DNA of 64,000 nt from a virus. This document shows, in pieces, positions 32,007 through 56,236 of the stretch. The translations under genes and the position numbers were made by a program. The stretch spans positions 29,293 to 93,292 of IMG/VR virus record IMGVR_UViG_3300031537_000001. One strand, written 5' to 3'. Positions within the stretch are counted from its first letter, which is position 1. Every line of letters begins with the position of its first letter. The notes beneath the pieces are model-generated. The model was not told the origin of the DNA. It searched no databases and saw only the letters and a list, made by a program, of their open reading frames with translations.

Positions 32007-32007
32007 A

Positions 32008-34060: not shown

Positions 34061-37000
34061 ATGGCTGTAACCGAACTTAAAGATACTGGAAATGGTGAGA
34101 GTAAAAAATATCTTACTGATAACTACAAAACTGAACAATTTACTGATGATAAAGGTATTGAATATTCTCCTGTAAAATTTCAAGGAGATGAAGAATCAGG
34201 ATTTACTTATAAACCTAGAGGGAATGTTGCTACTTTACCCGGAAGAAATCCTGTATTTATGGGTTCTACTTCTCCAAGATTTGCTATACCTTCTAAAGAT
34301 TGGAGTTTATGGGATGCTGGGTTTACCGGAGATAATATACAGGATTTAGAACGATTCAGGGCTGAACAACAACCCTGGATAGTTAAAGCCGGATATACAA
34401 TCGGAGGAGGTGCATTGTCAGGTTTAGGTACTATAATAGAGGATGCCGGATATTTAATGGATTATATGACTTATGTTAATATGTTTACTGATATTGATAT
34501 GCATAGTCAAAAATCCATGAATTTATTTAGAGCTTTACCTTCCGCTTATCAACAAATGGGACGCGGCTTAAAAAAGTCTACAGAGAAAAATGTAATGCCT
34601 GTATATCAAAATTTGGATCCAAATAGTTTTTCAGATCAAGTGTTTCAGTGGAATACACTTAAAACTATTATTGATAATGCAGTCGGATTTGCTGTAACCG
34701 GTTGGGGTATTGGTCAAGTAGTTAATGTTGCTGGTAAAGGTATTGTAAAGGGGCTTACTAAAATAGGTAAAAATTTAGCTAAAGTTGCAGAAACTCCTGC
34801 GGTATTAAGCGAATTATCTATAGCTGACAGAGTTGCTATAAAATTATCCAGAACTGAAGCTTATGCAAAATTATTATCACAGCGGAATCCAGAACTATTT
34901 TCTACTATGGATGCTACTTTTACAGGTATCTTTACTAAATCGGTAGAAGGTAGAATGGAAGGAATGGAAGCTTATGAAAACTATTTAGAACAGTATAAAC
35001 CATTAGTCCAAAATGGAGTAATTACACAAGAAGAATTGGAACAAATGGCTAGTAAAGAGGCTGGAGATGTATTTGATGTAACTCAAAGACTATTTGCATT
35101 AGATGCCATGATATTAAAAGGTTTAGCTAAAGGTAAAGTAATAACTTCTAAAAAGTTAGCTAATCCTAATTTCTTTAGACGAAATGCTCATATTTTATCA
35201 GGTATTCCTAAAGAAAGTACTGAAGAAGCTATACAACAAATAGCTCAAATGGAAGGAGAGTATGGTCTACTTCAACAGACTAAAAATCTTCAACCAGGGA
35301 ACTATAATAAAATGAAAGAACTAGGATTTGATCCTGATGAATTACTTGAAAGATATTCAGAAAGATTAGCTGAATATCTATTATCTAATGAAGTCCTTGT
35401 TGCCGCCAGTATTGGAGGTATAAGTGGACCGATTCAATCTGCTGCATTTAGTATGTTTGATAGGAAATCCCGGATTAAAAATATTCAAGATGCTTATAAA
35501 GATCAACAGGAACAATATAAAACTAATGATAAACTGTTTAAGGCTACTGTTGAATTTAAAGAAAAAGCAAAACAATTAAAATTAACTGATGATATGGAAG
35601 AAGTATCTCAACTTCTTGGAGATAAAGAATTACAGAGTATTAAAGAAGATGCTACTCTAGCAGGTATTGCTTTAGATAATTTTAGAAAAGGTACTTCGGA
35701 CAACTTGAAACAAACTTTAAAGGAATCAAAAGACCCAGAGGTCAGTAAGTTATTACCCAAATTAGAAAATCTTGAAAAAGATTATATATCTTCTAAAAAA
35801 TATATAAATGCAGATAGAGTATTTCAATTACAAAATGGTGTACGTCTATTACAAGAACTATTAGATAACAACAGATTAAAAAGTAATGATGTAAAACTTG
35901 ATGAAAAAACCAGAACAAGTTATATAAAATCAGCTAATGAACTTGAAAATATTATTGCTAAAGCTAATGAAACTATTGATAAAGAAACTACAAAAGATTA
36001 CCAGATAAAATTAGCTGAATCAGTAATACAAATGGAAAAAATTAATAAACTTGTTAATAGTATAGCAAAGGTTGAAGATATTTCTGCATTAAATACTCTA
36101 AAGACCTTAAATCCTAATTTATCTGATGTAATAGATGATAGAATAGATCAAATTAGATCTACAGCTAATTTATCTAAAACAACAAATACAGAAGATACTA
36201 AACAAAATATACAGACAAAGACAAGAAAATCTACTCCTGATAATTCTACTATAGAAGGTAAGTTGGATATAATAACTTCTAAAATTGCAAACAGTGTAGA
36301 ACTTACTGAAGAAGAAATAAAGTTACAAAAAGAGAATATTGAAACTATAAAAGATAAACTTTCGAATCTACATATGCAGGAAGAAACTTCTGAGAATGAT
36401 GTTGTGGATAATGAAGGTACAGCATATACAGAAAGTTCAGGTATTGAAGTTAAGAATAAACGTGATTTTGATAATGTTGTTAAACCGGTTATTACTGAAT
36501 TATATAAAAATCTATCGGAAAATAAAGATTTTAATCTGAATTACAATGATGTAGAAGATGAATTATATAATTACTATCTTAATATAGTGGATACTGTAGA
36601 AGATGTTAATCAATTAAATGATGAATTAACAGCTAAAGCTGAACAATTATACAAAGAACACGATAAAACTTCGCGATTAAAAGATGAAATCGAAATTGAA
36701 GCTGAAGAAGAAATAGATGCAAATAAAAGTAATGAATTCTTATTCTCAAAATCAGCTAATAAATTAGTAGAATTGTTAAACCTTGATAAAGATCTATCTT
36801 CAGAACTAACTGAAGATATTATCAGTCCTGAACAACAAGCTGAAAATGATGCTAAAGCTAAAGTAGGAAAACAGATTTTAGATACTTTCAAATCTATGTG
36901 GAAAGAAATGATTCAAGCTGGAATTGAAGTAGAAGATTTCTCTACTTTTATACAAGCTTTTCAAGCTGCTGTAAAAGATCCAATTGTAGTCAGGGAATGG

Positions 37001-38884
37001 TTTACGAATATGGCTGGTTTTCATCAAGGTATGACAGGTGAAGTTAATACAATTACTTATGATGATATTTTCAAAACTGCTGAACCTGATGTTGTAGTAG
37101 ATGAAATGACTAATGAGAAAAGACAGTTTATCTTTGAAACTATTTCTCCTTCTGTAATAGATTTTTTACCAATGAATAAAATATATGAAATCTATATGGA
37201 TGAAACTATTGAAGTAGTAGGATCTAAAAATAGATATCCTGCTTCTTCTATTGCATACCTATCTAAAGCTTATGAGTTTAAGTATATTGATAATAAAACT
37301 GTAACAAAGGAATCAGTAAGTGATGATTATATTCATGGCAATCCAATTTTAAATCCGATTGATTATAATGCAGGGACACCATTAAAAATAGAAAGTGCTG
37401 ATGGTATTTATAAAGGTAGAATACGTTTAGAGAATGGACAACTGATAGATTGGGAAGAAATTAAAAAAGCTTCATTAAATTCTGAAACCTGGGATAAATT
37501 TCAACAAAGTTATAAACTCGGTAAATACTCAGGTAAAAAACATTTTAATGAGTTTGATATTTTTGATTACTGGCCTTTAACCATTAAACATGGAGAAACT
37601 GGTCAATTAATAGGTTTTGTACATAATACTCAATGGATAAATCATATTACTTCAGCCGATTCAGTTATTGATTCTAATAGACTTGCTTTAGGAAAGTTTA
37701 GAAAAGATCTTATATCTTATTTACTTGAAAATCCAGAAACTCCTTTCGAGACTAAAATAGTAAAAAAAGTGATTGAACGTAAGGATGATCATTATGTAGG
37801 ATTCAGATTACTGTCTAAGAATAAGGCTGAATTAGCTAATAAATATTTGGATCCATCTATTTCATTTGGTATAATGAATATTTCTTCTGTTGAGGTTCCT
37901 GGTAGAGCTTCAATAGAAAATAATATCCTTAACACGGATGAGGTTGAACAATTTTATAGTGGTACATCTTTTGCATTTATCCCATTAGGAGAAGTAAATG
38001 GAAAAATGAAATATCATGCTTCACCACTTGTTACAGATAAACTACCTCAATCTATAATAAAAAGTTTACGTCAATCTATAGAAATTTTTGCAAAACAAGA
38101 TTCAAGCATTAATCAACTTTTATATGATTCTTATAAAAAAGATGGTATTGATTTATTATCTAAAAAAGGTTTATCGGATGTGTTTACTAAAGTAATTACA
38201 TTATATAATCCAAAAGAAAAAGGTACTCTTGCAAAGACCTTAAAATCCAGATTAGGTAAATCTTCTTTAGGATTTATAGAATTCTCTGGAGAAACTTTAT
38301 CCTTTGGAAAATCTCATGTTTATTCTATCTTTAAAGGTCAGAAAGATCTTGATACTAATTTAGATATACTTGAAACTCAAATATTACCTCATGTATTTTT
38401 TAATGTGAATAAAAATTTACTTAATAAAACAAATAAATTTACATTCGCATCTATAAATGATTCAAATGAAATTGATACCTTTGAAGGAAATTACAATGAA
38501 TTTATAAAAAATTATGTTAGTACCTTTATGAGAAGTGTAAAGTTAGAAGATGGAACAACGGCTTATACTGCACAGAATATAACAGTATTTGATATGGATA
38601 CTTCAAAGTTAAATAAACTAGAAATAGAGGAAACAAATGTAGAAACTATACAAGAAACTATTCCTGAAGGTTTAGAAATATCTTCTGTGGGGATTGATGT
38701 TAAAATAGAAGATTTACTTAAAAATCCTATCCTTAAATCTATATCAGAAAAATCAGGAAAAGATATAAATAAACTAGCTTTAAACATAGCTGAAGGTAAA
38801 ATAACATTAGAGAGATTAGTTAGAGCATTAAATATTTCTCAAACTGCACTAGAAAATAACGAAAATAAAAACTGTGATTCATAA
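34061..38884 (+). CDS. giant virion cargo protein A (about 1607 aa) with N-terminal membrane-active segments
   Basis: ATG 34061 follows the previous stop (the ORF track starts at GTG 34031). Gly/Ala-rich hydrophobic segments, long coiled coils, and a single Cys at residue -3. Confidence 0.75.
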   Translation: MAVTELKDTGNGESKKYLTDNYKTEQFTDDKGIEYSPVKFQGDEESGFTYKPRGNVATLPGRNPVFMGSTSPRFAIPSKDWSLWDAGFTGDNIQDLERFRAEQQPWIVKAGYTIGGGALSGLGTIIEDAGYLMDYMTYVNMFTDIDMHSQKSMNLFRALPSAYQQMGRGLKKSTEKNVMPVYQNLDPNSFSDQVFQWNTLKTIIDNAVGFAVTGWGIGQVVNVAGKGIVKGLTKIGKNLAKVAETPAVLSELSIADRVAIKLSRTEAYAKLLSQRNPELFSTMDATFTGIFTKSVEGRMEGMEAYENYLEQYKPLVQNGVITQEELEQMASKEAGDVFDVTQRLFALDAMILKGLAKGKVITSKKLANPNFFRRNAHILSGIPKESTEEAIQQIAQMEGEYGLLQQTKNLQPGNYNKMKELGFDPDELLERYSERLAEYLLSNEVLVAASIGGISGPIQSAAFSMFDRKSRIKNIQDAYKDQQEQYKTNDKLFKATVEFKEKAKQLKLTDDMEEVSQLLGDKELQSIKEDATLAGIALDNFRKGTSDNLKQTLKESKDPEVSKLLPKLENLEKDYISSKKYINADRVFQLQNGVRLLQELLDNNRLKSNDVKLDEKTRTSYIKSANELENIIAKANETIDKETTKDYQIKLAESVIQMEKINKLVNSIAKVEDISALNTLKTLNPNLSDVIDDRIDQIRSTANLSKTTNTEDTKQNIQTKTRKSTPDNSTIEGKLDIITSKIANSVELTEEEIKLQKENIETIKDKLSNLHMQEETSENDVVDNEGTAYTESSGIEVKNKRDFDNVVKPVITELYKNLSENKDFNLNYNDVEDELYNYYLNIVDTVEDVNQLNDELTAKAEQLYKEHDKTSRLKDEIEIEAEEEIDANKSNEFLFSKSANKLVELLNLDKDLSSELTEDIISPEQQAENDAKAKVGKQILDTFKSMWKEMIQAGIEVEDFSTFIQAFQAAVKDPIVVREWFTNMAGFHQGMTGEVNTITYDDIFKTAEPDVVVDEMTNEKRQFIFETISPSVIDFLPMNKIYEIYMDETIEVVGSKNRYPASSIAYLSKAYEFKYIDNKTVTKESVSDDYIHGNPILNPIDYNAGTPLKIESADGIYKGRIRLENGQLIDWEEIKKASLNSETWDKFQQSYKLGKYSGKKHFNEFDIFDYWPLTIKHGETGQLIGFVHNTQWINHITSADSVIDSNRLALGKFRKDLISYLLENPETPFETKIVKKVIERKDDHYVGFRLLSKNKAELANKYLDPSISFGIMNISSVEVPGRASIENNILNTDEVEQFYSGTSFAFIPLGEVNGKMKYHASPLVTDKLPQSIIKSLRQSIEIFAKQDSSINQLLYDSYKKDGIDLLSKKGLSDVFTKVITLYNPKEKGTLAKTLKSRLGKSSLGFIEFSGETLSFGKSHVYSIFKGQKDLDTNLDILETQILPHVFFNVNKNLLNKTNKFTFASINDSNEIDTFEGNYNEFIKNYVSTFMRSVKLEDGTTAYTAQNITVFDMDTSKLNKLEIEETNVETIQETIPEGLEISSVGIDVKIEDLLKNPILKSISEKSGKDINKLALNIAEGKITLERLVRALNISQTALENNENKNCDS

Positions 38885-41800
38885 TGGGTTGTCAAGAAAC
38901 TAGATTAGGTTTATTAAAACCAGAAAGAGTAAAAGAGATTTTAGCTTCTCAGGATGTTTTTATCCAAGGTCTTTCATTTGCAAAGCAAAAAGAAGTAGTT
39001 AATGTTCTAACAGGTAGGCTATATCAAGCTGCCTTCGAAAATACAAATCCTGAAAAAGTATTGCTAAATACTATTGTAGAGAATTTTGTTAAAGATGTAG
39101 AAAGTAACATAAATTCGTTACAAGAATCTATTGAAGATCTGGAATTACTCAATGATGATAATTCTATGCAGGAAGAAATTGATTCTGTTAAACTAAATAT
39201 TGCAGATAATAAATCTGTAATTGATAATATAGATAAATTTAGATCTTTAGCAAAAGCTGAGTTAGAACATATTAATTTTATCCGGATTAAAAAACTGCAA
39301 GAAAGTTCAGAATTAGTTTCCAAAGAACAGGAAGAGTTATCCGAAACTCCGGATATGGAATCTTCCTTTGAACGAACTTCTTTTTCTGATAACTTTTCTA
39401 TAGAGTTAAGTTCCAGGGATACCATATCCACACGGATGAAAAAATTTTTATCTTATATTACTGAATACGAATATCAAGATGGTATACCGGTACAAAAGAA
39501 ATCTTTTATAGGTACAGAAATAGCTTTAGATTTTAATTATGTCTATAAAGAATTGCATAGCATTCTACATGATTTACCAGCTAAATACGATGTCTTGGTT
39601 TCTAAACTGGATGAATTTACTTCCTCAGCTATAACTGAACAAAATCCAAACTATGCTTGGTTACAAGATATATCTAATAAATTAAGTTCTAAAGATTCCA
39701 AGGGTGAATATACTTTAGATGAACAAATAAGAAAAGAATTTGTTACTGATATGACTAAACATAGGATAAAAATGAAATTTATTTCCTATGAGCTTAAATT
39801 GGAAGAAGATGGTTTTTATCATCCAAAATTAAAAGTATATGATGATGATTCTTCTTCTATAAGTAGACGTATTCAACAACAATGGAAAAAAAGTCATCTA
39901 AAATCCAGTGTAGTAGTACATGGTCTTTATGATGAGAATAAACTTCAATCAGTAAAAGAAAAAATTTCAACTTTAAGAAATACAGATCAAAAAGATGGAT
40001 TAGCTTTAGCTAAAATAGCTACAGATATCCTTCATAGTTTAGGTATTAATGCTGAACCTATCTATGTAAATTCATTATTCTTAACCAGTAAAAAGATATA
40101 TTACGGAAGTAAATCATCTACTGGAAGACAGTTCTTTCATCCTAATGGACCGATAGATATTTTACTAAAACAGATGTCTCCAGGTTCTTTAGTGGAGAAT
40201 TCTGATGTAATGAATGACAATATAGTTTTCGGATTAGTTAATGGCTCTTCTTCCTATGTTAAAGATCAATTCGCTCACTCCTTTAGAATAGGAGATAAAA
40301 TTATCTATACATATACTAATAATCATTATACAGTTAATCGGGTAAATAAATTAACAGAAGAAAGCTCTCAACTTAGATCTGAATTATCTAAATCTCTATT
40401 CGCAAAAGAATCTCTTTATCTGGCAATGTTAAATAATGAAGATACGAACTTTAGAAAAGATTTTGAAGTTTCATATGTATCATTACATCCACTAAAAACT
40501 AAAAGACGCAGATCGAAAGAAGCTAATAAAATTAGTCCTACCGATATGGAAATTGTTAAAGTAGGATTCTTCAATAATGGAAATAAATATAATTCAATAA
40601 ATATAAATGGTAAACCTTTATCTTATCGTAAGGCTCAATATTTTTTACCTACTAATTCTGACAAAGAGAGAATTTTATTAGGTTCCGGTTTAGCATTTGA
40701 TTCTGTAGTATCTGATACTGTAGAAGATAATTCCGGTAAATTAATACCTACACAATATTTTAAACCTGAAGCTTTGGATTTAATGTATGAGAGTGTAGTT
40801 AAAGCTGAAATAAATAGAATCTTCTCTACATCCCAACCTTCTTTTGATGAAAATATAGATTTAGCTGACTATAATGGAAAACTATTTTACTTATTTCCTT
40901 CTTTAAATGATTTGACGATTAAACAAAAAAATAATGAAGGAGATGAGGTAGAAGTTAAGTTACTCGATTTAGTTCAGTCTTCTCCCCAAATTGATTCAAA
41001 TGTTAAGAATCAAATCAAAGCTGAACTTGTAAGAACATTAATTGATTCTACTTTTCAAACTTTAGAATCTTATAAATCTAAAGGACTTATAGTAGAAAGA
41101 GATGGTAAATATTTCCCTACAAACAGATTAGTATTAAAATCTACTAAAGCTGGTAAAACAGATGTTATCGCTTCTATTATGAATATGAAATTTAACTATT
41201 TCCTATTTAATGCAAATATGTTTCAGTTAATAGTAGGAGATCCTTCAAATTATGCTAAAGGTAATATTAAAGGAACTTATGCTAATATAGGCAAACGTTT
41301 AGCAGCAGAAATTGCTCCGGGAAATGAATTCGAAAGTGAAGATTATATTCAATTATATGCTAAAGATAAAATCTCTACTTCAGTAGTATTTAAACATATC
41401 TTGAAAATACTTGATAATAAGACATTACAACAATTTAATAGTATGTCTGAAGATCAACGTAGGAAATTAAAATCTTTTCCTTATACTGCAATAAAAGGTA
41501 CAGATGCACAGGAAATAACTACCTGGAAAGAACATTTAGATGTTCTTAAAGGTTTAGGAAGGATCAGTAAAAAAGAATATGAAGAAGCTTCTGATGCATT
41601 TTCCAATAAACGTCTTCCAACTAAAAGAATATTTGATAAAGTTTTACAACCTTTAAAACCTGTATATGTAAACAATAAAATAATACAGGTAGGAGATTTT
41701 AAAATTGATAAGAAAATATACATTAAAACATCTTCTTTTCCCTTGATACCTGCATTAACTAAAAATCAGGAAATAGATAAACTTAGGCTCAAATTAGAGG

Positions 41801-44800
41801 ATATTGCTTCTAAGAATGGGAATAAAGGAGTAAGATTAGTTTATAAATCCGGGGTTAAGGTTGGATTTCCAAAGAAAACTGCTTTAACTATCTTCGATGA
41901 GGCTGGAAATATAACAGATTTTCAAATAGATAAACCTGAAATATTATCCAGAGAAGGTTTTAAAATTCAACAGGATAAACCTTATGATCCAAAAAAACTA
42001 AAAATTAATAGCGGGGCTCAGGCTAAAAAACTATTATTCGCAAATTTTCTTAATACTGAATTTGATTATAAAGACAATAAGGTTACCGGGGAAGAATTGA
42101 GATCTAAGTATGTTGATTATTATAAACAATTATATGACCTTGGTATCGCTTCTCTAAAAGATAGAATTGGAACCAAAAGATATAGAGATAAAAAAGGAAA
42201 CTCTCAAACATTATTGGATATTGAATTATTATCTTCTTTACTCAAAGGAGAATTACGCAAACGCGGGGAAGATACTAAAGTATTAATAGATGGTTTAGAG
42301 ATAAAAACATTTCCACATAATATAAATGGTAAATCGATAGTAAGGAAAGATTTCGCTATTCCTCTATGGGCTAGTCCTAATGCAGATATTTATGCATCCT
42401 TACTTATATCACTGGTTAAAAATTCTGTAGTTAAACAAAAATTAACTGGTAGGAGTGAAGTTTTAGCTTCTCAGGAAGGTTTTAAACCTACTTCGGAAAC
42501 CGTAATTAAAGCGGTTGAAACTGGTGAAGATTTAAGTAAACTTATAAATGAGTATGATAGTATTCTATTTACTGATAGCTATAATCATGAACAAGGTTTA
42601 CTTCCTCAATACACAGATAGTAAAGGGATTGTACATCCGGCTCAAATATTAGTACCATTTAAATTTCAGGATAATGATGGAAATACATTAGATCTATCTC
42701 AATTTACTGTAAAAAATAAAGAAGGTAAAATTACAATTGATAAAACTAAATTACCTCCTGAACTATTAAAAACTTTTGGATTTAGAATTCCTACTCAGTT
42801 ACATTCTTCAATGTCTTATATGGAGATTGTAGGATTTTTACCAACGATAAGTGGGGATATGATTGTGGCTCCAAGGGAATTTACTATTCAAATGGGTTCA
42901 GATTTTGATGTTGATATGTTATATTCTTATCTCATGTCAACTAAATATAATTCTGTACATAAATCTCTGGCTAAAATAGAAGAAATATCCGATTATAAAG
43001 GCAAAAGACGGAAATTGGCTATTGATTATAAACTAGCTAAACAAAAACTACAAGAAAATTCTCCAAATGACTATAAAGATATTTTTAATCGTATTGTAGA
43101 ATCTATTGATATCTTTCGGGAAACCGGAGATACTATTAATGAAAATGAATTAGGTAATTTTGTAGGTAATTTATACCCGGATGCTGAACTTAATCTGATT
43201 AAGAATGTAATAAATTTAAGTCTTGAATTGGATAATTTTGACAACTTATATAAAAAAAGTATTCATAATTCATTGCTTGATATTCATCTTACTGTTGTCA
43301 GCAGTCCACAGACTCAAAGTAGTATTATTACCCCTCTTGGATTAGGACAGTATTTAGGTACAACTATTAAATATGATGGTAAGGAATACATAGATGGTTA
43401 TGCAGATTTAATAGATACTTTATCTTCTTCTGTAAGACAAGAACCCATAATATCTGATATTTATCAGACTAATAAATTTTATGATGGTACTGAAGGTAAA
43501 GATGGTATTAGTATGTTCTCGGCAGATTCAATCTTTAATGCTTTGGCCCAAGATAAAGAACTTCAAATTCAAACAACAAATTATTTAGGAGAAAAGGTTC
43601 CTATCCAGATTGAATTTGGAAATAAATATGACATGTCTAATGGAATACTTGGTAGATTACTTTCATTAAAAAAGGATTCACCAAGAAAAATTACTGAAAT
43701 TATAGCTGCTGCTCAAAACCTATCAGTAGATAATGCTAATGAGCAAGGTATGTATAAAGTAAATATGAATAAATACACATTTAATGTATATTCAATATTA
43801 AACTTTCTCGGTTTTGAGGAAGACGTATCAACTACATTTATATCTCAACCTATAATTAAAGATTTTGTCAAATTAGTAAGAGAGTCGGAATCTATTACTG
43901 GTAAATATAATCCGGATAGAATAGATGATATTATTGATATCTTAAAAAAGACATATGATTCTCAATCAACTTATACTCCAAAAGATCAAAGCTTAGCTGA
44001 TTTCAAAGGTAAAGATGCTTCTAAAGAAATGCTTGATATGATTAAAGATCAAGAAAAGTATATTGATTTTGGAAAACATCAGGTAGCAATTTTACTTAAA
44101 TTTTTACAATTACAAGAGTATGAAAGATATCCTGCATCCTTAAAGAAATACTTGAATATCGATTCTAAAGGATTTAATAAAAATATGTTTATCAATAAAC
44201 TTAGATACGATAAATCTTTTACATTAAATTTCCATAATATAAAGAATGCAGAATCTTTATTAGGGACAATAGAAAATGATGAATTTGGCTTAACTGATGT
44301 TAATCCTACTACACTAGCTGGCTTAGATACTTGGATAGGAACTGAAAGTTTATTATCATTCTTTGGTAATGAATTTGTAGAAACAAATCCTTCCTTTATG
44401 TTCAAGAGTATATATTCAAATCTAGCTGTAAATATAGGAAGGGATGGAAATCTCTCAGCTAGTCAATTAAAATCTATAACAAATGGATATAAAGACTTTC
44501 TTCTTACTAATTTTAAAACCGGAAATATAGATAATGTTAGAAAAGTTCTTTTTACCAATACTAAAGAAGGTTCTCTATATGATAATCTTAATAAATTAAA
44601 AGATTCAATATATTGGAAAAAGAATACCTTTCTTAACGGAATAGCATTCCAGGAAACAGATGGTGTAGTTACTATAGATTTCAATAATACTTCAGAAGAT
44701 ATCTTAGATGATAATAAATTCTATTTATCTTTTCTGGATATGTTCCGTAATGATAGTGAAATAAATGGTGTAATTCCATCTATTGTAGCCGAACAATTAG

Positions 44801-47355: not shown

Positions 47356-47358
47356 ATT

Positions 47359-47856
47359 ATGAAAAATCTAATTAGTGATGTTTTAATAGAAGCCTTGCAA
47401 TATAGAATAAACCAAGAAAGAATAAGCAGTTATATTTATGAAGATATGGCTAACTATTTAGACTACATAGGATTTACAGGAGCAGCTAAACGTTGGAGAA
47501 AATATGCTTCGGAGGAACTAACTCATTCAGGATGGGGTGAAAGTTTATTATCTGATTTAGACCTATTACCTAGAATGGATATAATTCCTAAACAACCAGG
47601 AACCTATTCAGGATTAGTAGATATCATAGATAAAAGTCTTGAACATGAAATTACGATTACACAACAATGTAATGAATTATTTGTCTTAGCTATGAAAGAA
47701 GGTTGTGGTATGGTTACTCAACTTGCTTTAAAATATCAGGCTGAGCAAGTAGAAGAACTTGGTAAAATGACTTATTGGAAAAATCGTCTTGAAGCTTTTG
47801 GTGATGATTCTACAGCTTTAAGATTTCTTGACAATGAAATGGGAGATCTGGATTAA
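47359..47856 (+). CDS. ferritin (FtnA-like)
   Basis: INQE..SSYIY, EELTH, LEHE, EQVEE ferroxidase-centre pattern; 165 aa. Confidence 0.85.
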   Translation: MKNLISDVLIEALQYRINQERISSYIYEDMANYLDYIGFTGAAKRWRKYASEELTHSGWGESLLSDLDLLPRMDIIPKQPGTYSGLVDIIDKSLEHEITITQQCNELFVLAMKEGCGMVTQLALKYQAEQVEELGKMTYWKNRLEAFGDDSTALRFLDNEMGDLD

Positions 47857-47874
47857 TATAAAAATAATCAAACT

Positions 47875-49083
47875 ATGGGAAAAAATATAGAAGCCGAAGG
47901 TGGGGAACTAACTCTTCGAAATCAGAATAGGGATATAATTATTGTCCCTAAACATGATAGGGAAAAAATTCTTAAAATGTTAAAGAATAAAGACCATGAA
48001 GGTATAGATGAATATGCATCTTCTTTACCTTATATGGAAGATTATGCTGATGATGGTAGTTTGTTATTAAATGATAATATTGGCCCTGAACCGGGACCAG
48101 GTGAAAAGGGTACTACTAAAAATAAAACTATTACTTCTAAGAAATCTGAAGGTTTATATACTAATAAAGAATATGAAGCTTTAAAAAATGATTACTATAC
48201 TAATTCAAAGTATACAAAATATAGTGCAAAAACTCCAGGAGCAGGTTGTGTAGGTTCAAGTTGTAAAAATTTTGATGTTCTTTACCCCGATAAGAAAGGT
48301 TTTTATGAAGATTATTCTAGTGTAGGATTATTCCAAAAAGAATATCCAAAAGTAGTTACGAGTAATAAAGGTGTGAGAAAACCCCAAGGAAGTTCGGTAG
48401 GTATAGATGCTTGGGAAGCAGAAGATTTTATAACCCATAATAAATTGGGAGAACCTATAGTTAGTGCGAATGATAAAGATTACTTAAAGAAACTTTATGG
48501 ACTTGATCCTAGAGATATTCCTATTGGTTCAATGTTAACTTTTGGAGATGCTGTGAAAGCTGGTTATGTAGAAAAAGGAGCTCCAAATTGGAGAGGTGTA
48601 AAAGATCAGCATATGACTCAACATGGAGGTGTTGCAATGGGTTATGTTGAAGATGAAGATGAAGAGGGAAATCAAGTGTATAATTTAATGGTAGATGAAC
48701 TTGGTTTAAAAACAATAGGACAAGGTAAAACAGCTACTATGAGTTGGCCTTCTTATGTAAGTAGTAGGGATATGAGAGGAATTGTTAAAAGATACAGTTC
48801 ACCAACTAACTATTGGGATTTATCCGGAAAAGAAAAAAAGAAAATTTTTACTAGACCTAAAACTGTAGATGTATTAAAAGATATAGAAAGATATAAAAAA
48901 GAAATGTTAGAATCTATAAAATGGAATGAGGAAAATGAAATGCCTGGTTATCCCAAAGGTAGTTATGCAAAAGCACAAAAGGAAGGTATAAAAATACCAA
49001 AAGAATTACTATATAAATTTGGACAATCTACTGGTTTAGCTCCTGGAAATCCAAAAATTGTCGAAGTAGAAAAAAAGAAATAA
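47875..49083 (+). CDS. putative virion NlpC/P60 (CHAP-like) peptidoglycan hydrolase with N-terminal cargo module
   Basis: N-terminal IEAEGGE...YADDG; GCVG (C125), DAW, IPIGSMLTF, HGGV (H250). Confidence 0.55.
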   Translation: MGKNIEAEGGELTLRNQNRDIIIVPKHDREKILKMLKNKDHEGIDEYASSLPYMEDYADDGSLLLNDNIGPEPGPGEKGTTKNKTITSKKSEGLYTNKEYEALKNDYYTNSKYTKYSAKTPGAGCVGSSCKNFDVLYPDKKGFYEDYSSVGLFQKEYPKVVTSNKGVRKPQGSSVGIDAWEAEDFITHNKLGEPIVSANDKDYLKKLYGLDPRDIPIGSMLTFGDAVKAGYVEKGAPNWRGVKDQHMTQHGGVAMGYVEDEDEEGNQVYNLMVDELGLKTIGQGKTATMSWPSYVSSRDMRGIVKRYSSPTNYWDLSGKEKKKIFTRPKTVDVLKDIERYKKEMLESIKWNEENEMPGYPKGSYAKAQKEGIKIPKELLYKFGQSTGLAPGNPKIVEVEKKK

Positions 49084-49113
49084 ATTACTGTATTAATTAA
49101 TAATAATAATAAT

Positions 49114-49725
49114 ATGAAAAATTCAATTTTAATTTTAGTCTTCATTGTAATAACAGCATTTTCTTGTATTTCTGTAATGGATGAACAAGCATTATCTGAA
49201 TTAAATGAAGAGATCTCATTGAGAGATGCACTGCCATCTAATATAAGACTGCAATATCCTGTGGATATGTCTAAATATTATGATGCTAATCCATATGGAA
49301 ACATAACTAAATATGGAATTCATCTAGGTTCTGATTTAAATAAATATGGACCAGTAAACTGTGATTTAGGAGATACTATTTATTGTATCGGATCTGGTAT
49401 GGTTATCGAATGTTCTGATCCTTTAATAGTTATACTACATAGAATAGAAACTGATTCTATGAACTATATTATATCTAGTTACTATCATTGTGATACTATA
49501 TTTGTAACTCCAAATGATTATGTATCTAAGGGACAACCAATAGCTTTAATAGGAAAAAAATGGGCTTATACAGCACATCTTCATTTTGAAATCCTTACAG
49601 ATACAACTCAAAGACGAGAATTCTATTTTGATAAAGATAGTAGAGTTGATGATTATAGAAAATTATCTTGTATAGATCCTATGAAATTTATCAAAGAATA
49701 TAAACCTAATAAAAGAAAAAACTAA
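49114..49725 (+). CDS. M23 family peptidase, predicted lipoprotein
   Basis: Signal peptide ending in AFSC (Cys18); HLGSD (HxxxD), YYH, HLHFE. Confidence 0.85.
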   Translation: MKNSILILVFIVITAFSCISVMDEQALSELNEEISLRDALPSNIRLQYPVDMSKYYDANPYGNITKYGIHLGSDLNKYGPVNCDLGDTIYCIGSGMVIECSDPLIVILHRIETDSMNYIISSYYHCDTIFVTPNDYVSKGQPIALIGKKWAYTAHLHFEILTDTTQRREFYFDKDSRVDDYRKLSCIDPMKFIKEYKPNKRKN

Positions 49726-52389
49726 ATGATTTGTTTAGATCTAAATAACTCAAAAGTAACTGAATCTCTGAGTAAACTTACCAGAGTTTTTAAGAATGAG
49801 AATATTGCATATGTTTTACTGGCTAAAAATAATTCATTTAGTCTTGAGAATAATTTACAAGGTAATCCTTCTGAATTATTTAATGGTTTAAAGCATCTCT
49901 ACGGAAATGCTACAAAAGCTTTGAAAACAAAAGCTATTATTTATACAAATGAATTTTTAGCAACTAATGAATGGTTTGAAAAAGGAGAACCATCAGTTAC
50001 AGAGGTATTAGAGTTTCTTGATAAACAACGGAATAATTATAATACAGAACCGGTCTTTAATGACCGGTCTGTTATTTTCATTGGGAATAATAAAAGTACT
50101 GGTACAAAGACTTTAACAAAACAAAATATTTTTAGTGTAATACCTGTTCAAGCAGTTGATAAAAAAGCTATTACTAAAGCAAGTATAGCTAATAAATTTA
50201 TTGGTTTTGGTGAAGGGATTGAAAATTCTTCTACAGAACTGTATAGAAAACAAATTGGAAAATATGCTAATACAGGAAACTACAATAACAACGATACTGT
50301 ATTTGTTTCGATTGGAGGTAAAAGAGGTTCTGAGACTTTAAGAAATGAGCAACAAAATAAAACTATTCAAGAAGCTTTAAAAGCTATTGAATCTGGGGCT
50401 ACTCTTATTACTGATAATAAAAGTTATATTGAATCTTCTACATATAATGAAGGAGAAAAAAAGCTTTACTCAATTTTAAAAAGCAAAGGTTATAGTTATT
50501 CTGAACAAACAGTAGATAATCAAGTCTTAGGAGTTTGGAATAAAACTAAATTCAATTTAACTTCTATGTATTCAAATATTGATAATGCCTTATCAAAAGG
50601 TGTTAGAGCTTTTGTAATGTCTCCTATAGAAAAAGCTACTGAACAGGAATTAAATATTTCTGAGTATCTTTTATCAAAGGGTTTTGAGTATGTAGAAAAA
50701 AACGATACCGGATTTTATGTAAAAGAAATTTCAAAAGTAGATGCTATAATTGCAGATGAGGTATCTGATAATCTAATAACTCTAAACAATGTAACAATTG
50801 ATTTACGAAAACTTGGATTTGATTTCTCGTTAACAATACAACAAAAGGAATTCTTAAATAAGTTTGCTTCCTGGTTAGATGGTTCTGATTCAACCATGGA
50901 TAAAAAACATTTCTTATTAAATGGATATGCCGGAACTGGTAAAAGTACAGTAATAAAAGTCGCGATAGAATATGCAAAAACAATAGGTAAAAAACTTGTT
51001 TTAACAGCTACTACTGCTACTGCTGCCGATGTTCAAAAAAGTATTTATGGTGATGAAATAACTACCAGTACTTTACATTCCGCTTTAGGTTTAAGACTCG
51101 ATGGATTTGAAAACCAATTTGGAGATAAGGAACAGTATGATAACTTTGGAGGCATTATTAAATCAGGTGATATACTTGTGATAGATGAAGCTTCTATGCT
51201 TAACAATACATTGTATTCAAAGGTTTTACAAGAAGGGGTTAAAGTTCTGTTTATAGCTGATTCAGGTCAATTTAAACCAGTAGGAATGACAGCTCTTTCT
51301 AAAGTCTTTAATACTTCAGATAAGGTTGTTCAAAACCTAACTAAAGTTGTTAGACAAAACGAAAACAATCTTCTTAATTCTACTCTTACTTTACTTAGGA
51401 CTGATCAGGAAACTACAGTTGATCCTTTAAAAGATAAACGAGTAACTAAAATCAATCAAGAAACTCAGGAAGGTATAGAATATAATATAGGAGAAAAGCA
51501 TTTTTTAGAATCTATTACTAAGTTTTTTAAATCCAATAACTATAAAAAGGTCCCGGGATTTGCTAAGATTCTTACATACTTTAAAAACAGTGTAACTTCT
51601 TATAATAAAACAGTTAGAAATATTTTAGGTTATAAATCTGAGATTGAAGTAGGTGAAGTATTAACCGGTTATAAAAATGTACATTTTAGTAAAACTTCAA
51701 TGTTTAAAAATGGTTCTGATTATGTTGTTACAGGTTCTAATACAAAAAATGTAACAGTAGAAAACCCATTTGATGAATCTATGTCTGTAGAATTTCCTGC
51801 AAATATCGTTGATATTAAAAATACATTGACTAGAGAAACTTTTACTGTTACTATAATGAGTAGATCAGTATCTCAAAAGACAAAAACTGATTTAGCTTTA
51901 ATGTATGAGTATATAAGAGAAAAGATTTATAGTTTTCCAGCAGGAAAATCTCGACAGAATGCAAAAGAACTATTTTATCGTTTTGATAATTCTTTTATGA
52001 CTTTAGATGATTTAGAATCTACTACTTTAAAAGATAAATATGGTAAACCATTAGTAGTTAAAGACAAGACTATAGATTATGGTTATGCTATAACTTTTCA
52101 TAAGTCTCAAGGAAGTACTTATCAATATGCATTAGTTGATGAAACAGGAATTGATTGGTTAATTTCAAAACATAAAGATATTCTTGCTGCAAATCAATCA
52201 AGGTATGTAGCTTTTTCACGAGCAGCGAAAGGTATAGTAGTACGTTCAAGTAAACAGATTTCTACTGATTCAGAATTCGAAATACAAGATGTTGATAAAT
52301 CTGTTGACAATATATCTATTAATGCCGAAAACATAATATCTTTAGATGCTTTAGTCAAAGATGGAATAGCAAATAAAACTTGTAAATAA
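49726..52389 (+). CDS. cargo protein with RecD/Dda-like SF1B helicase and N-terminal SLOG-like domain
   Basis: GYAGTGKS, DEASM, DSGQF, VVRQ, YAITFHKSQGSTY, YVAFSRA; Cys only at residues 3 and 886. Confidence 0.85.
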   Translation: MICLDLNNSKVTESLSKLTRVFKNENIAYVLLAKNNSFSLENNLQGNPSELFNGLKHLYGNATKALKTKAIIYTNEFLATNEWFEKGEPSVTEVLEFLDKQRNNYNTEPVFNDRSVIFIGNNKSTGTKTLTKQNIFSVIPVQAVDKKAITKASIANKFIGFGEGIENSSTELYRKQIGKYANTGNYNNNDTVFVSIGGKRGSETLRNEQQNKTIQEALKAIESGATLITDNKSYIESSTYNEGEKKLYSILKSKGYSYSEQTVDNQVLGVWNKTKFNLTSMYSNIDNALSKGVRAFVMSPIEKATEQELNISEYLLSKGFEYVEKNDTGFYVKEISKVDAIIADEVSDNLITLNNVTIDLRKLGFDFSLTIQQKEFLNKFASWLDGSDSTMDKKHFLLNGYAGTGKSTVIKVAIEYAKTIGKKLVLTATTATAADVQKSIYGDEITTSTLHSALGLRLDGFENQFGDKEQYDNFGGIIKSGDILVIDEASMLNNTLYSKVLQEGVKVLFIADSGQFKPVGMTALSKVFNTSDKVVQNLTKVVRQNENNLLNSTLTLLRTDQETTVDPLKDKRVTKINQETQEGIEYNIGEKHFLESITKFFKSNNYKKVPGFAKILTYFKNSVTSYNKTVRNILGYKSEIEVGEVLTGYKNVHFSKTSMFKNGSDYVVTGSNTKNVTVENPFDESMSVEFPANIVDIKNTLTRETFTVTIMSRSVSQKTKTDLALMYEYIREKIYSFPAGKSRQNAKELFYRFDNSFMTLDDLESTTLKDKYGKPLVVKDKTIDYGYAITFHKSQGSTYQYALVDETGIDWLISKHKDILAANQSRYVAFSRAAKGIVVRSSKQISTDSEFEIQDVDKSVDNISINAENIISLDALVKDGIANKTCK

Positions 52390-52390
52390 T

Positions 52391-55300
52391 ATGGATTGTA
52401 CTTATGATATATCTGGAGATAGCCTGCAAGGTCAGGCTATTAACTTCTTACAAAAAGAAGGAATTAAAAATGTTGCTAAAGTATTTGATGAAAGTTCTTA
52501 CACACTGAGTAATAAGGCTAAGTTTAAAAACTCAGCCTCTTTACTTAATATGCTTCAAAATACCTCGGAACTATTTAAGAAACATGGATTATTTATTCAT
52601 AAAGGTAATCCTAAAATTATGCAACGTAATATTGAGTTTTTTGAAAACTTATATACTACTGAAAGATTAGTATCCGGGATTAATACTAAAGCACAAGAAG
52701 CCGGATTAAAACATAATGTGATAAGTAGTAAGAAATTTCAAGGTAACTACTATTTACTTATGCACGGAGATTCTTTTATAAATGATAAATCAGTTGAATG
52801 GCATAATAAACAAAAACAAAAAACTCTACAGGAAAATATCGATTACATTAAGAGAGTAAATAAATATATGTCTGATAGAATTGGACAAGACGTTATATCC
52901 GTTACTAAAACTACAAATGGCTACAGAGTTAATATTAATGAAGATTCTTTATTAAAATATAATGAATTGAGTTATAGAAATTATTTAAACTCTATGACTA
53001 CTCTTTTTGATAACAATGATTCCTATACTGAAGAACATGATTTATTAATCAATCCTATTATACAGGATTTATACAAAGATAGATCATCATTTTCCAGAGA
53101 AAAATATTTACTTGAAGCCAAGGGTGGCAAGAAATCTGATATAAACATATTAGATAATAAAATCAATAAAATAGAAACTACTATAGAAACTTTAAAAAAG
53201 AGTGAAGCTCTTGATGATATATTCCGAGAAGCATTTGATAATTTTTCAGACATCGATATTATTTTAAGTAAAGATAAAATTAGTAACAGAGAATTCATCT
53301 ATTCTAAAAAGAAACTTGAGATGTGGCAAAATTCGGGAGACTTTTCTAAAGGAACTCATGCATTCCTGGATACAGATGAACTTGGGATAGAGGAGTATAC
53401 TGAGAAGTTTGGAGAAATAAGAAATGAGGCTGAGAAAAGATTATCTAAATTATTAAAACTTGGTGAGTCCTTACTAGAATCAACTGTTAACAATAAACTG
53501 AATTGGAATTCAAGACTTGGATTCAATCAAATTACTAAGTTGGTTAACAAGATTAATGTAGTAGGTAAAAAAGTTTTATCTCTCAATAGAGTAGGAAACG
53601 CTCTTGCTCAGTTTATTCATAAAATAGTCAATGAAGCAAATAATAAGGCTTTTATTGAATCAAAAATCAAATCAAGAAGTTTAGCCAATTTATATAGTAA
53701 TGTAAAAAATTCTGGATTTGATCTTAATCTGTTTTATCAAAAGGATGAAGATGGAACCAGAACAGGAGATCTAACTACCAGATTTTCAAGTAAATATTCT
53801 CGTTATAAAAATAATATTAAGAAAAATACTAAAAGGATAAAAGATAATATGATTTTATTAAATCCTGCTATACTATTCGGAGAAGAAGAGGCTGAGAAAG
53901 ATGCATTAGTAAATTTATTAACTGAACATCTTGGAGAACAGGAAACTAACCGATACATAGAAAAAGCTAGAATCAAATTTGATGAGTATAAAGAAATAAG
54001 AAACGAGTATGTTAAAGTAGAATTTGAAACTATAGATCTATCTCTGGAACAAGAATTACAATTACAAGAATGGGAACAAGAAAACTCTCCTATCGCGTAC
54101 ATAAATTCATTAAATACTACAAAACAAAAAGATACTTCTCAGCTTTCTGGTAAAAGTACTTTTTTGATTATGGTCCCAAAAAGATTTAATGAGAAGGGAG
54201 AGGAGACAGGATTTTACGATAAAACTTTTGATTCAATTCTAGCTAGTAAACCAGCTTATGAATTTTATATCGAAGCCAAAGAAATATTAGAAAATGCAGC
54301 TATAGCATTTGGTAGTGTAGCATTTGATACTGAGTCCTTGGGATTTGTACAGAAATCTTTATTAGAAAAGTATAATGAAACTGGTATTATAGATTTTATT
54401 ACAGAAGATGTTTATAAATCATTAGTGAAAGATCTTATTTCAGAAGATAGCCATCCAGCTAAAACTAATTTATTAACCGGTAAAGTAGAACATAATATTA
54501 ATGTAAATGTGCAGTCTATTAAAACCAGGATACACTCAGAATATTCAAGAGCTATAAAAGCGTTAGGAGTAAAAGAAGAAGATTTAACTTCTGATCAAAA
54601 GTCTAAAGTATATAAAGAAGCTTCAGATAAAGTATTTCAAGAAAACTCTGAAAACTTATTTATGTCTTTAAATATGTTAAACCTGGCTGTTCTCAGTGCA
54701 AAACATAAACATAATGTAGAAGATGCTGTTAATCTTGCTATGACATATCTTCCTAATTCTACTGTTGAAATTGGGGATGATTATGTGGACTCAGCCGGAA
54801 ATCCTATTGCTGAAAAATATATAAATAATATGATGGAAATGGCTGAATACTTCTTGTCAATGAGTTATTATGATGAGGGTAAAGTAGATACTTCTGCTAC
54901 TCTATATAAGATCCAAACCAAGGAAGAGAAATTAAAAGTAAAAGAAATTGATAAATTATTATCTCAAACAGATTTAACTCCTGAAAATAGAGCCAAACTT
55001 GAAGAGGAAAAAAAGACTTTAGGTAAAAGAGTTACTATGAATGGAATGGCTAGAAGACTATTAGATATACTACGTCTAAAAGCTTTAGGATGGAATGTAC
55101 CAGCAGCTATTACCAATTATATGTACGGTAAATTGACAAACCTATATAAAGCTGCTGATGGAAGATTATTTAATATACAAGATTTAGCTAAAGCAGAAAA
55201 GATTATAATTAGTGAGAATAAGAAATTTAACCATGTTATAGAAAACTATGGAATTCTAGGAGATATTCTATTTGAATTTAAAGATACAAATAAATTTGAA

Positions 55301-56236
55301 GAAAAAGATAATTGGTTTATGAAATCAATAAAACAATTTAAACCTTATTCTTTACAAACTGGAACCGAAAAACATAACCAAGGATCTGTTATGGTTGCTA
55401 TGATGTTACATCAAAAAGTTAAGGATTCAGAAACCGGTGAAGAAAAAGATATATGGGATGCAATTCTTCCGGAAGGAATTCTTGAAGATAGATGGACTCT
55501 GGGAGAGTTTAAAGGAGAAGATGCTATTGTTGAAATGGTATCCAGGATTAAATCACAAGTAGAAGAAATACATGGTGATTATTCTAACCCTTTACTTATA
55601 AAATCCTCTGTATCGGGTCAAGCTCTAAGTATGTTCAAACTATGGTTCTTTGAAGCCTTTTACAATAGATTCGGTAGAGAACGCCCTGACTATATCAGAG
55701 GCATTTCAATCAAAGGACGTTATCGTACACTAACTTCATTACTAGCACAGTATAAAGGCAATATTTTTAAGGTTACATCTGATTATAAAAATGGTAAACT
55801 GTCTGAGGTAGATGCTGCTAATATGCGTGTAAATTTAGTAGAATTAACTACAATGATACTTGCAGTTACTTTAGCAGCATTATTAAAGGGTGCAATCTGT
55901 GATGATGATGATGATTGTAAAGGAGCTGGGCAGGCAGAATTATTTACGCTTAATATGATGAAACGCTTAACAGGTGAAATATCATTCTTTACTTCACCCG
56001 AAAATTGGTATAAGTTCATATCTAATCCTGTTGCAGCAGCAAATGTTTTAAATGATATGGTTAAAGCAACTGATATAGCTTACATACAATTATTTGGAGA
56101 AGATGAACAAATGGAATTTCAAGCTGGGTATAGAAAAGGTACACGGAAAGATTGGGCCTTAGTTAGAGATTGGATTCCTATGTATAATCAATTTAAAAGG
56201 CTACAACATTATAGTGGAGAGGTATTAAATTTATAG
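52391..56236 (+). CDS. giant virion cargo protein D (1281 aa) with C-terminal membrane-associated domain (LPD38-like)
   Basis: Helical protein; IHGDYS..GQALSMFKLW, TM-like LVELTTMILAVTLAALL followed by DDDDD. Confidence 0.7.
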   Translation: MDCTYDISGDSLQGQAINFLQKEGIKNVAKVFDESSYTLSNKAKFKNSASLLNMLQNTSELFKKHGLFIHKGNPKIMQRNIEFFENLYTTERLVSGINTKAQEAGLKHNVISSKKFQGNYYLLMHGDSFINDKSVEWHNKQKQKTLQENIDYIKRVNKYMSDRIGQDVISVTKTTNGYRVNINEDSLLKYNELSYRNYLNSMTTLFDNNDSYTEEHDLLINPIIQDLYKDRSSFSREKYLLEAKGGKKSDINILDNKINKIETTIETLKKSEALDDIFREAFDNFSDIDIILSKDKISNREFIYSKKKLEMWQNSGDFSKGTHAFLDTDELGIEEYTEKFGEIRNEAEKRLSKLLKLGESLLESTVNNKLNWNSRLGFNQITKLVNKINVVGKKVLSLNRVGNALAQFIHKIVNEANNKAFIESKIKSRSLANLYSNVKNSGFDLNLFYQKDEDGTRTGDLTTRFSSKYSRYKNNIKKNTKRIKDNMILLNPAILFGEEEAEKDALVNLLTEHLGEQETNRYIEKARIKFDEYKEIRNEYVKVEFETIDLSLEQELQLQEWEQENSPIAYINSLNTTKQKDTSQLSGKSTFLIMVPKRFNEKGEETGFYDKTFDSILASKPAYEFYIEAKEILENAAIAFGSVAFDTESLGFVQKSLLEKYNETGIIDFITEDVYKSLVKDLISEDSHPAKTNLLTGKVEHNINVNVQSIKTRIHSEYSRAIKALGVKEEDLTSDQKSKVYKEASDKVFQENSENLFMSLNMLNLAVLSAKHKHNVEDAVNLAMTYLPNSTVEIGDDYVDSAGNPIAEKYINNMMEMAEYFLSMSYYDEGKVDTSATLYKIQTKEEKLKVKEIDKLLSQTDLTPENRAKLEEEKKTLGKRVTMNGMARRLLDILRLKALGWNVPAAITNYMYGKLTNLYKAADGRLFNIQDLAKAEKIIISENKKFNHVIENYGILGDILFEFKDTNKFEEKDNWFMKSIKQFKPYSLQTGTEKHNQGSVMVAMMLHQKVKDSETGEEKDIWDAILPEGILEDRWTLGEFKGEDAIVEMVSRIKSQVEEIHGDYSNPLLIKSSVSGQALSMFKLWFFEAFYNRFGRERPDYIRGISIKGRYRTLTSLLAQYKGNIFKVTSDYKNGKLSEVDAANMRVNLVELTTMILAVTLAALLKGAICDDDDDCKGAGQAELFTLNMMKRLTGEISFFTSPENWYKFISNPVAAANVLNDMVKATDIAYIQLFGEDEQMEFQAGYRKGTRKDWALVRDWIPMYNQFKRLQHYSGEVLNL

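Follow-up and report, generated by a model that had tools for sequence, protein, structure and literature searches.

In a block of giant genes on a 64 kb stretch (hereafter the window; about 29% G+C) of the 93,292 bp virus record IMGVR_UViG_3300031537_000001, four large proteins, namely protein A, a virion RNA polymerase (vRNAP), a helicase and protein D, are nearly devoid of cysteine, and the few Cys residues that they keep include one at, or towards, each end that faces another of the four. Our reading, to which we assign a probability of about 60%, is that A, vRNAP, helicase and D are tied together by disulfides as a single N-to-C thread, equivalent to the fused polyproteins of other crassviruses. 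The reading is carried by the cysteine pattern itself, by its conservation in relatives, by its covariation with the splitting and fusion of genes and by a precedent in another phage.

Cysteine pattern, conservation and gene fusions

The four proteins are encoded on the plus strand, in a block of large genes extending from 26 kb to 56 kb of the window, and their Cys positions were counted from the translations of the open reading frames (ORFs). Protein A (34061..38884, 1607 aa), the first member of the chain, has a sole Cys, Cys1605 (codon 38873–38875), in the terminal sequence NKNCDS. The vRNAP (38884..47355, 2823 aa) has Cys3 (38890–38892), Cys2641 (46804–46806), Cys2795 and Cys2797; the helicase (49726..52389, 887 aa) has exactly two Cys, Cys3 (49732–49734) and Cys886 (52381–52383); and protein D (52391..56236, 1281 aa), the final member, has Cys3 (52397–52399), Cys1170 (55898–55900) and Cys1176 (55916–55918), with no C-terminal Cys. 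This amounts to ten Cys per 6,598 residues, compared with 0.75% across the ORFs of the window. A Cys at position 3 is found in three of the 85 ORFs of the whole 93,292 bp genome, and these three are the vRNAP, the helicase and D. At two of the junctions, A/vRNAP and helicase/D, the facing TGT codons lie 2–3 codons before the stop and two codons after the next ATG, 13–14 nt apart. Every Cys position and count given in the original prediction, which had been made from the DNA alone, was reproduced from the translations, as was its linear-chain topology, in which the first protein has only a C-terminal tip Cys (C-tip), the middle proteins have both tips and the last has only an N-terminal tip Cys (N-tip). 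Two details were amended: Cys2641, which had been taken as the terminal Cys of the vRNAP, is correctly placed but lies 182 residues short of the real C-terminus, and the chain in gene order stands as a topology, but three genes that had been overlooked separate the vRNAP from the helicase.

The tip Cys are kept in orthologues at 32–50% identity. Orthologues of A in the IMG/VR genomes G001 and G002 (32–33% identity) end in KYCIQ and KKCG, and the vRNAP orthologues of the same genomes begin with MANC and MINC. Four helicase orthologues (P0008–P0011, 37–41% identity) have exactly two Cys, one per tip, with ends such as MRC...KIC, MANC...KQCN and MKC...KTCK. Homologues of D at 39–48% identity, together with one distant match (27% over 22% of the query), start with MGC, MKC, MKC, MITC and MSYC, and those at 39–48% identity have, beyond the N-tip Cys, only the C-x5-C pair. 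The motif around Cys2641 is conserved in the window and in two related genomes (LEKEGEEVKRKCK, LEEEGRQLQEKCK and LNRIGEEIEERCK) and resembles the C-terminal end of the helicase, LVKDGIANKTCK; the likeness between LEKEGEEVKRKC and LVKDGIANKTC, to which the original prediction had drawn attention, is real and is kept in orthologues.

The same arrangement is found in cultured phages. In phi14:2, g067 ends in its sole Cys, g066 (2180 residues) has Cys3 and Cys2179, and the sole Cys of g065 is Cys3. In crAss001, the sole Cys of gp47 is residue 2339 of 2341, gp50 has Cys5, Cys1334 and Cys2404 of 2412 residues, and the sole Cys of gp49 is Cys5, so that the facing ends are LRCNS of gp47 and MSKRC of gp50, and DKICGANTLYEL of gp50 and MAKKC of gp49; gp47 is encoded on the strand opposite to gp50, and the pair is still kept. 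In FpV4, the upstream part and the vRNAP form one protein, gp32, with a sole Cys at residue 4286 of 4287, and gp33 begins with MAC. The linear-chain topology is thus repeated in phi14:2 and crAss001, and the enrichment of terminal Cys that the original prediction implied for orthologous cargo extends to both of these phages and to FpV4.

A scan of viral contigs with the single helicase sequence returned no relative, and alignments were needed to find relatives. The breadth of the pattern was measured on 92 homologues of at least 700 aa from an exhaustive helicase search, many of which are giants of 1,000–6,000 aa. Cys makes up 0.116% of their residues; it occurs at positions 2–7 in 41 of the 92 and within the last six residues in 71 of the 92, compared with 0.75 expected for each if each protein's own Cys are placed at random. 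Small replicative Dda-like helicases from the same search have an ordinary Cys content (0.65%) and no N-tip. At eight further IMG/VR loci, the gene after that of a Cys-ending giant starts M-x(1–4)-C, and often this N-tip Cys is the only one in about 1,100–3,200 residues. Conservation and enrichment in relatives together rule out chance as the origin of the tip Cys. A second putative wagon with both tips is present at L028 (11781–21147), where an 854-aa protein with only two Cys (MNKRC...KEC) lies between a giant ending in KECYL and a 1910-aa protein starting with MAC; small Cys-containing genes are interspersed, and none has a Pfam family.

The original prediction had supposed that gene fusions and splits would lose or gain both Cys of a junction together, and this is the outcome at all three junctions: splits carry the Cys pair, and fusions have no Cys at the join. 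At A/vRNAP, FpV4 gp32 (4287 aa) has about 1,700 N-terminal residues in the position of A before the vRNAP and no internal Cys, these residues having no similarity to A by BLASTP; in the fusion of another phage (L003), a detectably A-like sequence precedes the vRNAP, with no Cys at that join. At vRNAP/helicase, the two are one protein in L003, L007, L035 and L049, with no Cys at the join, and the L007 fusion has a single Cys, the last one, in at least 3,816 residues. At helicase/D, L001 and L002 are without the helicase, and D starts with a domain of 100–115 aa that is 38–39% identical to helicase residues 1–118 and that passes into D at around D residue 7 (L001) or 46 (L002). No Cys is found at this join, where the window has ...KTCK, a stop and MDC.... 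Across these junctions, the helicase acts as a cassette which brings one N-tip and one C-tip. The numbers of N-tips and C-type tips are equal in each block: three and three in the window, and two and two in L001, L002, phi14:2 and crAss001. The helicase had been listed as cargo in the original prediction, which is plausible, as other phages have it fused to the vRNAP.

The peptides at these ends are portable. FpV4 gp32 ends with ENNFRLPEIKNCN straight after the polymerase, and the L007 giant ends with RNNFRLPEIKKC after its helicase domain, though it is only about 26% identical to FpV4 gp32; the N-termini of the respective partners are also alike (MACTVEIQDIQ in FpV4 and MSCIVTQKDIQ in L007). 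The terminal peptide is thus conserved whichever domain it closes, as is expected of a docking element.

Identity of the giant proteins and the genes among them

The 2823-aa protein is, by its sequence matches, a crassvirus virion RNA polymerase. As a single sequence it had no match in the PDB (phmmer), whereas a profile of three orthologues matched the two-barrel virion RNA polymerase gp66 of phi14:2 (6VR4_A) with an E value of 2.2e-29 over profile positions 68–1891; the protein also matches the virion structural protein family phrog_16227 (E value 4.7e-70). Its residues 1340–1344 form a DFDVD catalytic motif, invariant across the three orthologues, which fits the DFDxD motif named in the phi14:2 preprint. 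Among cultured phages, its closest relatives are those of Flavobacterium (the FpV4 group), with crassviruses of Bacteroides and Cellulophaga next. In the C-terminal part, an HExxH motif, HETLH (residues 2216–2220, window 45529–45543), is likewise invariant across the three orthologues and is a possible peptidase site of the zincin type; in the phi14:2 preprint, a zincin-like domain is assigned to gp65 orthologues and not to the vRNAP. After Cys2641, the vRNAP continues into a tail (residues 2642–2823, window 46807..47352) of two repeat modules, W-x-L-[IV]-K-D-L-K-G-F-P-S-H-x-x-G-G, followed by a conserved C-G-C containing Cys2795 and Cys2797; no significant family was found for this tail. One such module closes the vRNAP–helicase fusion of L035, where it is bracketed by Cys3293 and Cys3358, and the vRNAP tail may therefore form a loop of its own or be a small wagon.

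The 887-aa protein is recognizable from its sequence as an SF1 helicase of the Dda/RecD-like type, with an all-α N-domain (residues 1–118), a domain here called X (about 120–290) and the SF1 core (about 340–850). It matches AAA_30 (5.9e-23) and AAA_19 (3.1e-14) of Pfam above the cutoff, UvrD_C_2 weakly and below the cutoff (1.2e-3, 19.1 bits versus 27.4), the Dda-like helicase family phrog_325 (6.5e-69), and Dda (3upu) and RecD (3e1s) in the PDB, and its GTGK motif at 403–406 is invariant. An AF2 model of the whole protein was poor (mean pLDDT 51.7) and gives nothing on the proximity of its two ends, while residues 1–100 of the N-domain were confidently all-α (pLDDT 70–90). A comparison of the N-domain with the N-terminus of D by hhalign gave a probability of 0.4%, i.e. 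no profile similarity, and hence no evidence that both N-tip regions belong to one family. This Cys-tipped helicase of the cargo block is the only SF1 Dda/RecD-like helicase in the whole genome; in Carjivirus communis (crAssphage) and similar crassviruses, the SF1 helicase sits in the replication module.

Domain X (about 150 aa, window 50083–50595) is 50–70% identical to segments of many giant Cys-poor phage proteins of 1,000–6,000 aa, and its homologues include small stand-alone proteins. No Pfam or PDB sequence match was obtained for it, even with a ten-member profile. The AF2 model is a confident α/β fold (pLDDT 80), for which the best Foldseek match had an E value of 1.2e-2 (methyltransferases), the best VIA match had a Z score of 5.2 (r.m.s.d. 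4.2, 114 aligned), which is in the commonplace range, and structure-atlas matches were all below 0.9; its structural neighbours are generic, Rossmann-like or methyltransferase-like.

Neither A nor D belongs to a Pfam or PHROG family. What A has in common with g067 and gp47 is only its position, size and tip Cys, and BLASTP gave no match between A and the N-terminal half of gp32 of FpV4. D is related to phi14:2 g065, annotated as 'RNA polymerase associated protein', by a weak and partial match of residues 886–1270 (tblastn, 22% identity, E value 6e-11). The segment 1147–1170 of D is the only strongly hydrophobic one in the four giants (Kyte–Doolittle 2.0 over 19 residues), and it runs directly into an invariant I-C-G-D-D-x-x-C-K (residues 1147–1176 for the whole, window 55829–55918). 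In this last protein of the chain, the segment and the C-x5-C may serve in membrane insertion or metal binding. Of the two membrane-inserting proteins that had been suggested in the original prediction, D has such a segment but A has none.

The order of genes in the block is a 1211-aa virion structural protein (phrog_28748), proteins of 383, 332 and 683 aa, A, the vRNAP, three small genes, the helicase and D. The 332-aa and 683-aa proteins (31008..34059, plus strand) are free of Cys and are probably other cargo outside the chain; the match of the former to crAss_CARG1 of Pfam is weak and under the cutoff. The three genes between the vRNAP and the helicase (47359..49725, plus strand) have ordinary Cys contents and encode a ferritin-like protein of 165 aa (47359–47856; Pfam Ferritin, 2.8e-13), a 402-aa protein with a CxxxxC (47875–49083) and an M23 peptidase with a lipoprotein signal (49114–49725; ..AFSC, cleavage-site Cys18). 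The ferritin-like gene is conserved directly after the vRNAP in L001 and L002 (164 and 172 aa). The M23 lipoprotein gene is on the opposite strand in both (8967–9542 in L001 and 8410–8955 in L002, minus strand), which argues that the block is not one fixed cargo operon and that the lipoprotein, an exported enzyme, has been placed within the block without being part of the threaded cargo. Kin of the vRNAP repeat module recur in the neighbourhood: G-F-P-S-H-x-x-G-G-[VI]-[DN] occurs twice in the vRNAP tail (46807–47352), the 402-aa protein begins with MGKNIEAEGGEL (47875–47920), and a related G-L-H-E-T-N-P-Y-G-G-I-P-I-G ... V-E-Q-G-E stretch closes the 383-aa protein (30870–31008); no family was found for these sequences.

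Disulfide links and alternative explanations

The tips are read as sites of inter-protein disulfides because a disulfide with the same signature has been described in the cyanopodophage A4 and because crAss001 particles contain disulfides. In the pre-ejectosome of A4 (Anabaena phage A-4L), cryo-electron microscopy shows Cys1715 of gp27 bonded to Cys5 of gp26, and gp27 docks into gp26 by its C-terminal helix (PNAS 2025, PMC12002296). The genes for gp27 (1717 aa) and gp26 (1114 aa) are adjacent in the A-4L record, with Cys1715 and Cys5 as the sole Cys of their products; the other ejection proteins are Cys-free or have a local CxxC, and gp29 has none. The tail and the portal vertex of crAss001 contain structural disulfides (PMC10172136), so that oxidation inside crassvirus virions is possible.

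In the proposed mechanism, A, the vRNAP, the helicase and D would be packaged as cargo, with their Cys purged save for the tip facing the next protein. The C-terminal connector ([KR]-x-C, 0–5 residues from the end) would dock on the next N-terminus (M-x-C) and, outside the reducing cytoplasm, the paired thiols would oxidize to a disulfide; pairing would follow gene order, one Cys of the vRNAP being used for the helicase. Since each link would run from a C-terminal end to the next N-terminal end, with stubs of 0–5 residues, the product would be a covalent and unbranched thread of uniform N-to-C polarity, A-S-S-vRNAP-S-S-helicase-S-S-D. Such a thread would hold the proteins together for packaging and for an ordered, partly unfolded passage through the tail, and reduction in the host cytoplasm would open the links and free the enzymes; the candidate functions are thus co-packaging in a fixed ratio, ordered extrusion through the tail and release by reduction. 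The loss of all other Cys would prevent mispairing and capture by periplasmic oxidases.

Docking of cognate termini, which had been put forward in the original prediction, was approached by complex prediction for helicase residues 700–887 with D residues 1–300. The score of 0.51, rated 'weak support', compares with 0.00 for the best of three controls; half or more (at least 50%) of the contacts are shared between runs, and the partner pLDDT is 69 or higher; the mark for support is reached by 58 of 80 solved complexes and by two of 110 mismatched pairs, and scores of 0.60 or less include only seven of those 80 complexes and both of the passing mismatches.

Several points weigh against the disulfide thread. 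The complex prediction is weak and the C-terminus of the helicase folds with low confidence. BLASTP of the window proteins against A4 gp27 and gp26 gave a best E value of 0.09, i.e. no detectable similarity, which makes the precedent one of analogy and not of descent. Some tips have no obvious partner: the only Cys of FpV4 gp30 (L090 2394–4190, 598 aa), whose gene immediately precedes the cargo genes, is residue 5 (MKKKC), and the gene before it shows no C-tip to pair with this one. Schitoviridae eject comparable proteins free of Cys, so that ejection does not in general call for a tether. Of the three links, that between the vRNAP and the helicase through Cys2641 is the least secure, as three genes, one of which encodes an exported lipoprotein, lie between the two, and the proposed linking Cys is internal, 182 residues from the end and near the conserved Cys2795 and Cys2797, which allows for an intramolecular bond or another partner; a link at Cys2641 would also leave a long side branch. 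Any of the three Cys in the C-terminal region of the vRNAP may face Cys3 of the helicase. As a whole, the original interpretation has held with regard to the conserved and selected tips, the chain topology and the outcome of splits and fusions, but the disulfide itself has been observed in no crassvirus cargo.

Bonds to structural proteins, a metal clasp and intramolecular bonds were considered as alternatives, and all fit the parity of the tips, the topology and the split/fusion covariation less well than does the chain. The best of these, which we nevertheless regard as unlikely, is that the tips bond to the portal, the capsid, the tail, the muzzle protein or another copy of the same protein and anchor the cargo instead of chaining it. 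Inter-subunit disulfides are abundant in the crAss001 tail and portal vertex (PMC10172136), where the cargo density is not resolved, and orphan tips such as that of FpV4 gp30, as well as giants with one tip only, would be accounted for. Anchoring does not, however, predict that N-tips and C-tips match in number per block (in the window, phi14:2 and crAss001), that the first protein has no N-tip and the last no C-tip, or that both tips of a junction come and go together at splits and fusions, and the bond in A4 joins gene neighbours.

Still less probable is a metal clasp, in which two thiolates would be bridged by, for example, Zn, Cu(I) or Fe, or else non-covalent docking with no disulfide. 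Gut crassvirus particles assemble and persist in anaerobic, reducing surroundings, and a ferritin-like gene conserved in L001 and L002 lies within the block; but one Cys per partner provides only two ligands, the density in A4 was modelled as a disulfide, and crAss001, itself a gut phage, has disulfides in its particle. The exact number of two Cys in the helicase and its orthologues, and in phi14:2 g066, would also suit a bond between both tips of one protein (Cys3–Cys886 of the helicase, or Cys3 of the vRNAP with a C-terminal Cys) that circularizes it. We consider this improbable, as A, D, g067, g065, gp47 and gp49 are single-tipped with no internal partner, many giants have only a C-tip or only an N-tip, and a circular protein could not thread a narrow tail. 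Finally, the matched TGT codons 13–14 nt apart at two window junctions recall the take-off and landing sites of a ribosomal hop (T4 gene 60 type) or a protein-splicing site yielding a true fusion protein, which is scarcely credible given that intergenic gaps vary from −4 to 41 nt and also reach 386 and 705 nt with other genes inside, that one codon pair is TGC/TGT and the amino acid stays Cys even between very distant lineages, that crAss001 gp47 and gp50 keep the pair on opposite strands, that some N-tips (the window helicase, L001 and L002) have no nearby upstream Cys, that A4 has two separate chains, and, for a split intein, that Cys lying 0–5 residues from the ends leave no room for intein halves and no intein domain is present.

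The disulfide thread bears on how megadalton protein loads pass in due order and stoichiometry through narrow podophage-like tails; according to the crAss001 atlas, the order of extrusion probably depends on packing and mutual interactions. A redox-reversible head-to-tail tether, if true, would be a concrete mechanism for this ordered passage, would explain why split and fused genes are interchangeable, and would recast the giant 'polyproteins' as threads and not as precursors for cleavage. Near-zero Cys together with a tip Cys would then mark injected cargo among giant phage proteins from sequence alone, and by this criterion the only SF1 helicase of the phage would be delivered with the genome. 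More tentatively, and with odds that we place slightly short of even, the tip Cys and portable connectors could be a general coupling by which tailed phages rebuild a giant ejected polyprotein from separately encoded pieces, insert new enzyme wagons, here the helicase with its domain X, while the injected train stays unbroken, and keep the links reversible through the reducing cytoplasm of the host; it would span Crassvirales, a cyanopodophage and hundreds of uncultured phages whose giant proteins are Cys-free.

Comparison with known systems

A single disulfide of this kind has already been published, for A4 (PMC12002296). The statement in the original prediction that no description was known thus holds for crassvirus cargo, for which none was found, but not beyond it, since the gp27–gp26 disulfide has the same signature. 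No paper on a terminal-Cys rule for crassvirus cargo was found in literature searches, which did not cover all journals; the words 'cysteine' and 'Cys' do not occur in the phi14:2 preprint, nor does 'cysteine' in the crAss001 paper (PMC10172136). What is new here is the four-member chain with a helicase wagon, the fusion of this wagon to the vRNAP elsewhere, the portable connector peptides, and the same rule in hundreds of giant proteins found via the helicase and its domain X. As in A4, sole or near-sole Cys lie within about five residues of the facing termini at the window junctions A/vRNAP and helicase/D. Unlike A4, which is T7-like, has no virion RNA polymerase or helicase and has one link, the window would have three, and the A4 authors describe the disulfide as stabilizing a static pentameric ring, without presenting it, in the available part of their report, as a general rule or a threading device.

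The Schitoviridae offer a second comparison, as the ejected proteins N4 gp50–gp52 and DEV gp71–gp73 are, like the window proteins, giant and strongly Cys-depleted, and include a virion RNA polymerase. Cys suppression in the N4 and DEV proteins has been explained by their passage through the disulfide-forming periplasm (PMC11445570), and the Cys-free state of the N4 vRNAP, cited in the original prediction, is borne out both by that source and by sequence, N4 gp50, gp51 and gp52 having no Cys. The depletion there is total, with no tips, whereas the window proteins keep their tip Cys, and the RNA polymerase is of a different family.

The closest counterparts are g067–g066–g065 of phi14:2 and gp47–gp50–gp49 of crAss001, which have a homologous vRNAP with DFDxD, a third protein to which D is similar in the case of g065, and an identical tip topology; the cargo proteins of both phages have been verified in virions by mass spectrometry and are expected to leave partly unfolded. 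Unlike them, the window has the helicase as a fourth member, three unrelated genes within the block and, after the connector Cys of the vRNAP, a repeat tail of 182 aa. The fused polyproteins of other phages (FpV4 gp32, L003, L007, L035 and L049) have no Cys at their internal joins, and the phi14:2 preprint supposes that such polyproteins are cleaved, a logic opposite to that of a tether. They nevertheless have the same domains in the same order as the window proteins, joined as a covalent N-to-C thread, which is the form that the disulfide-linked chain of A, vRNAP, helicase and D would reproduce.

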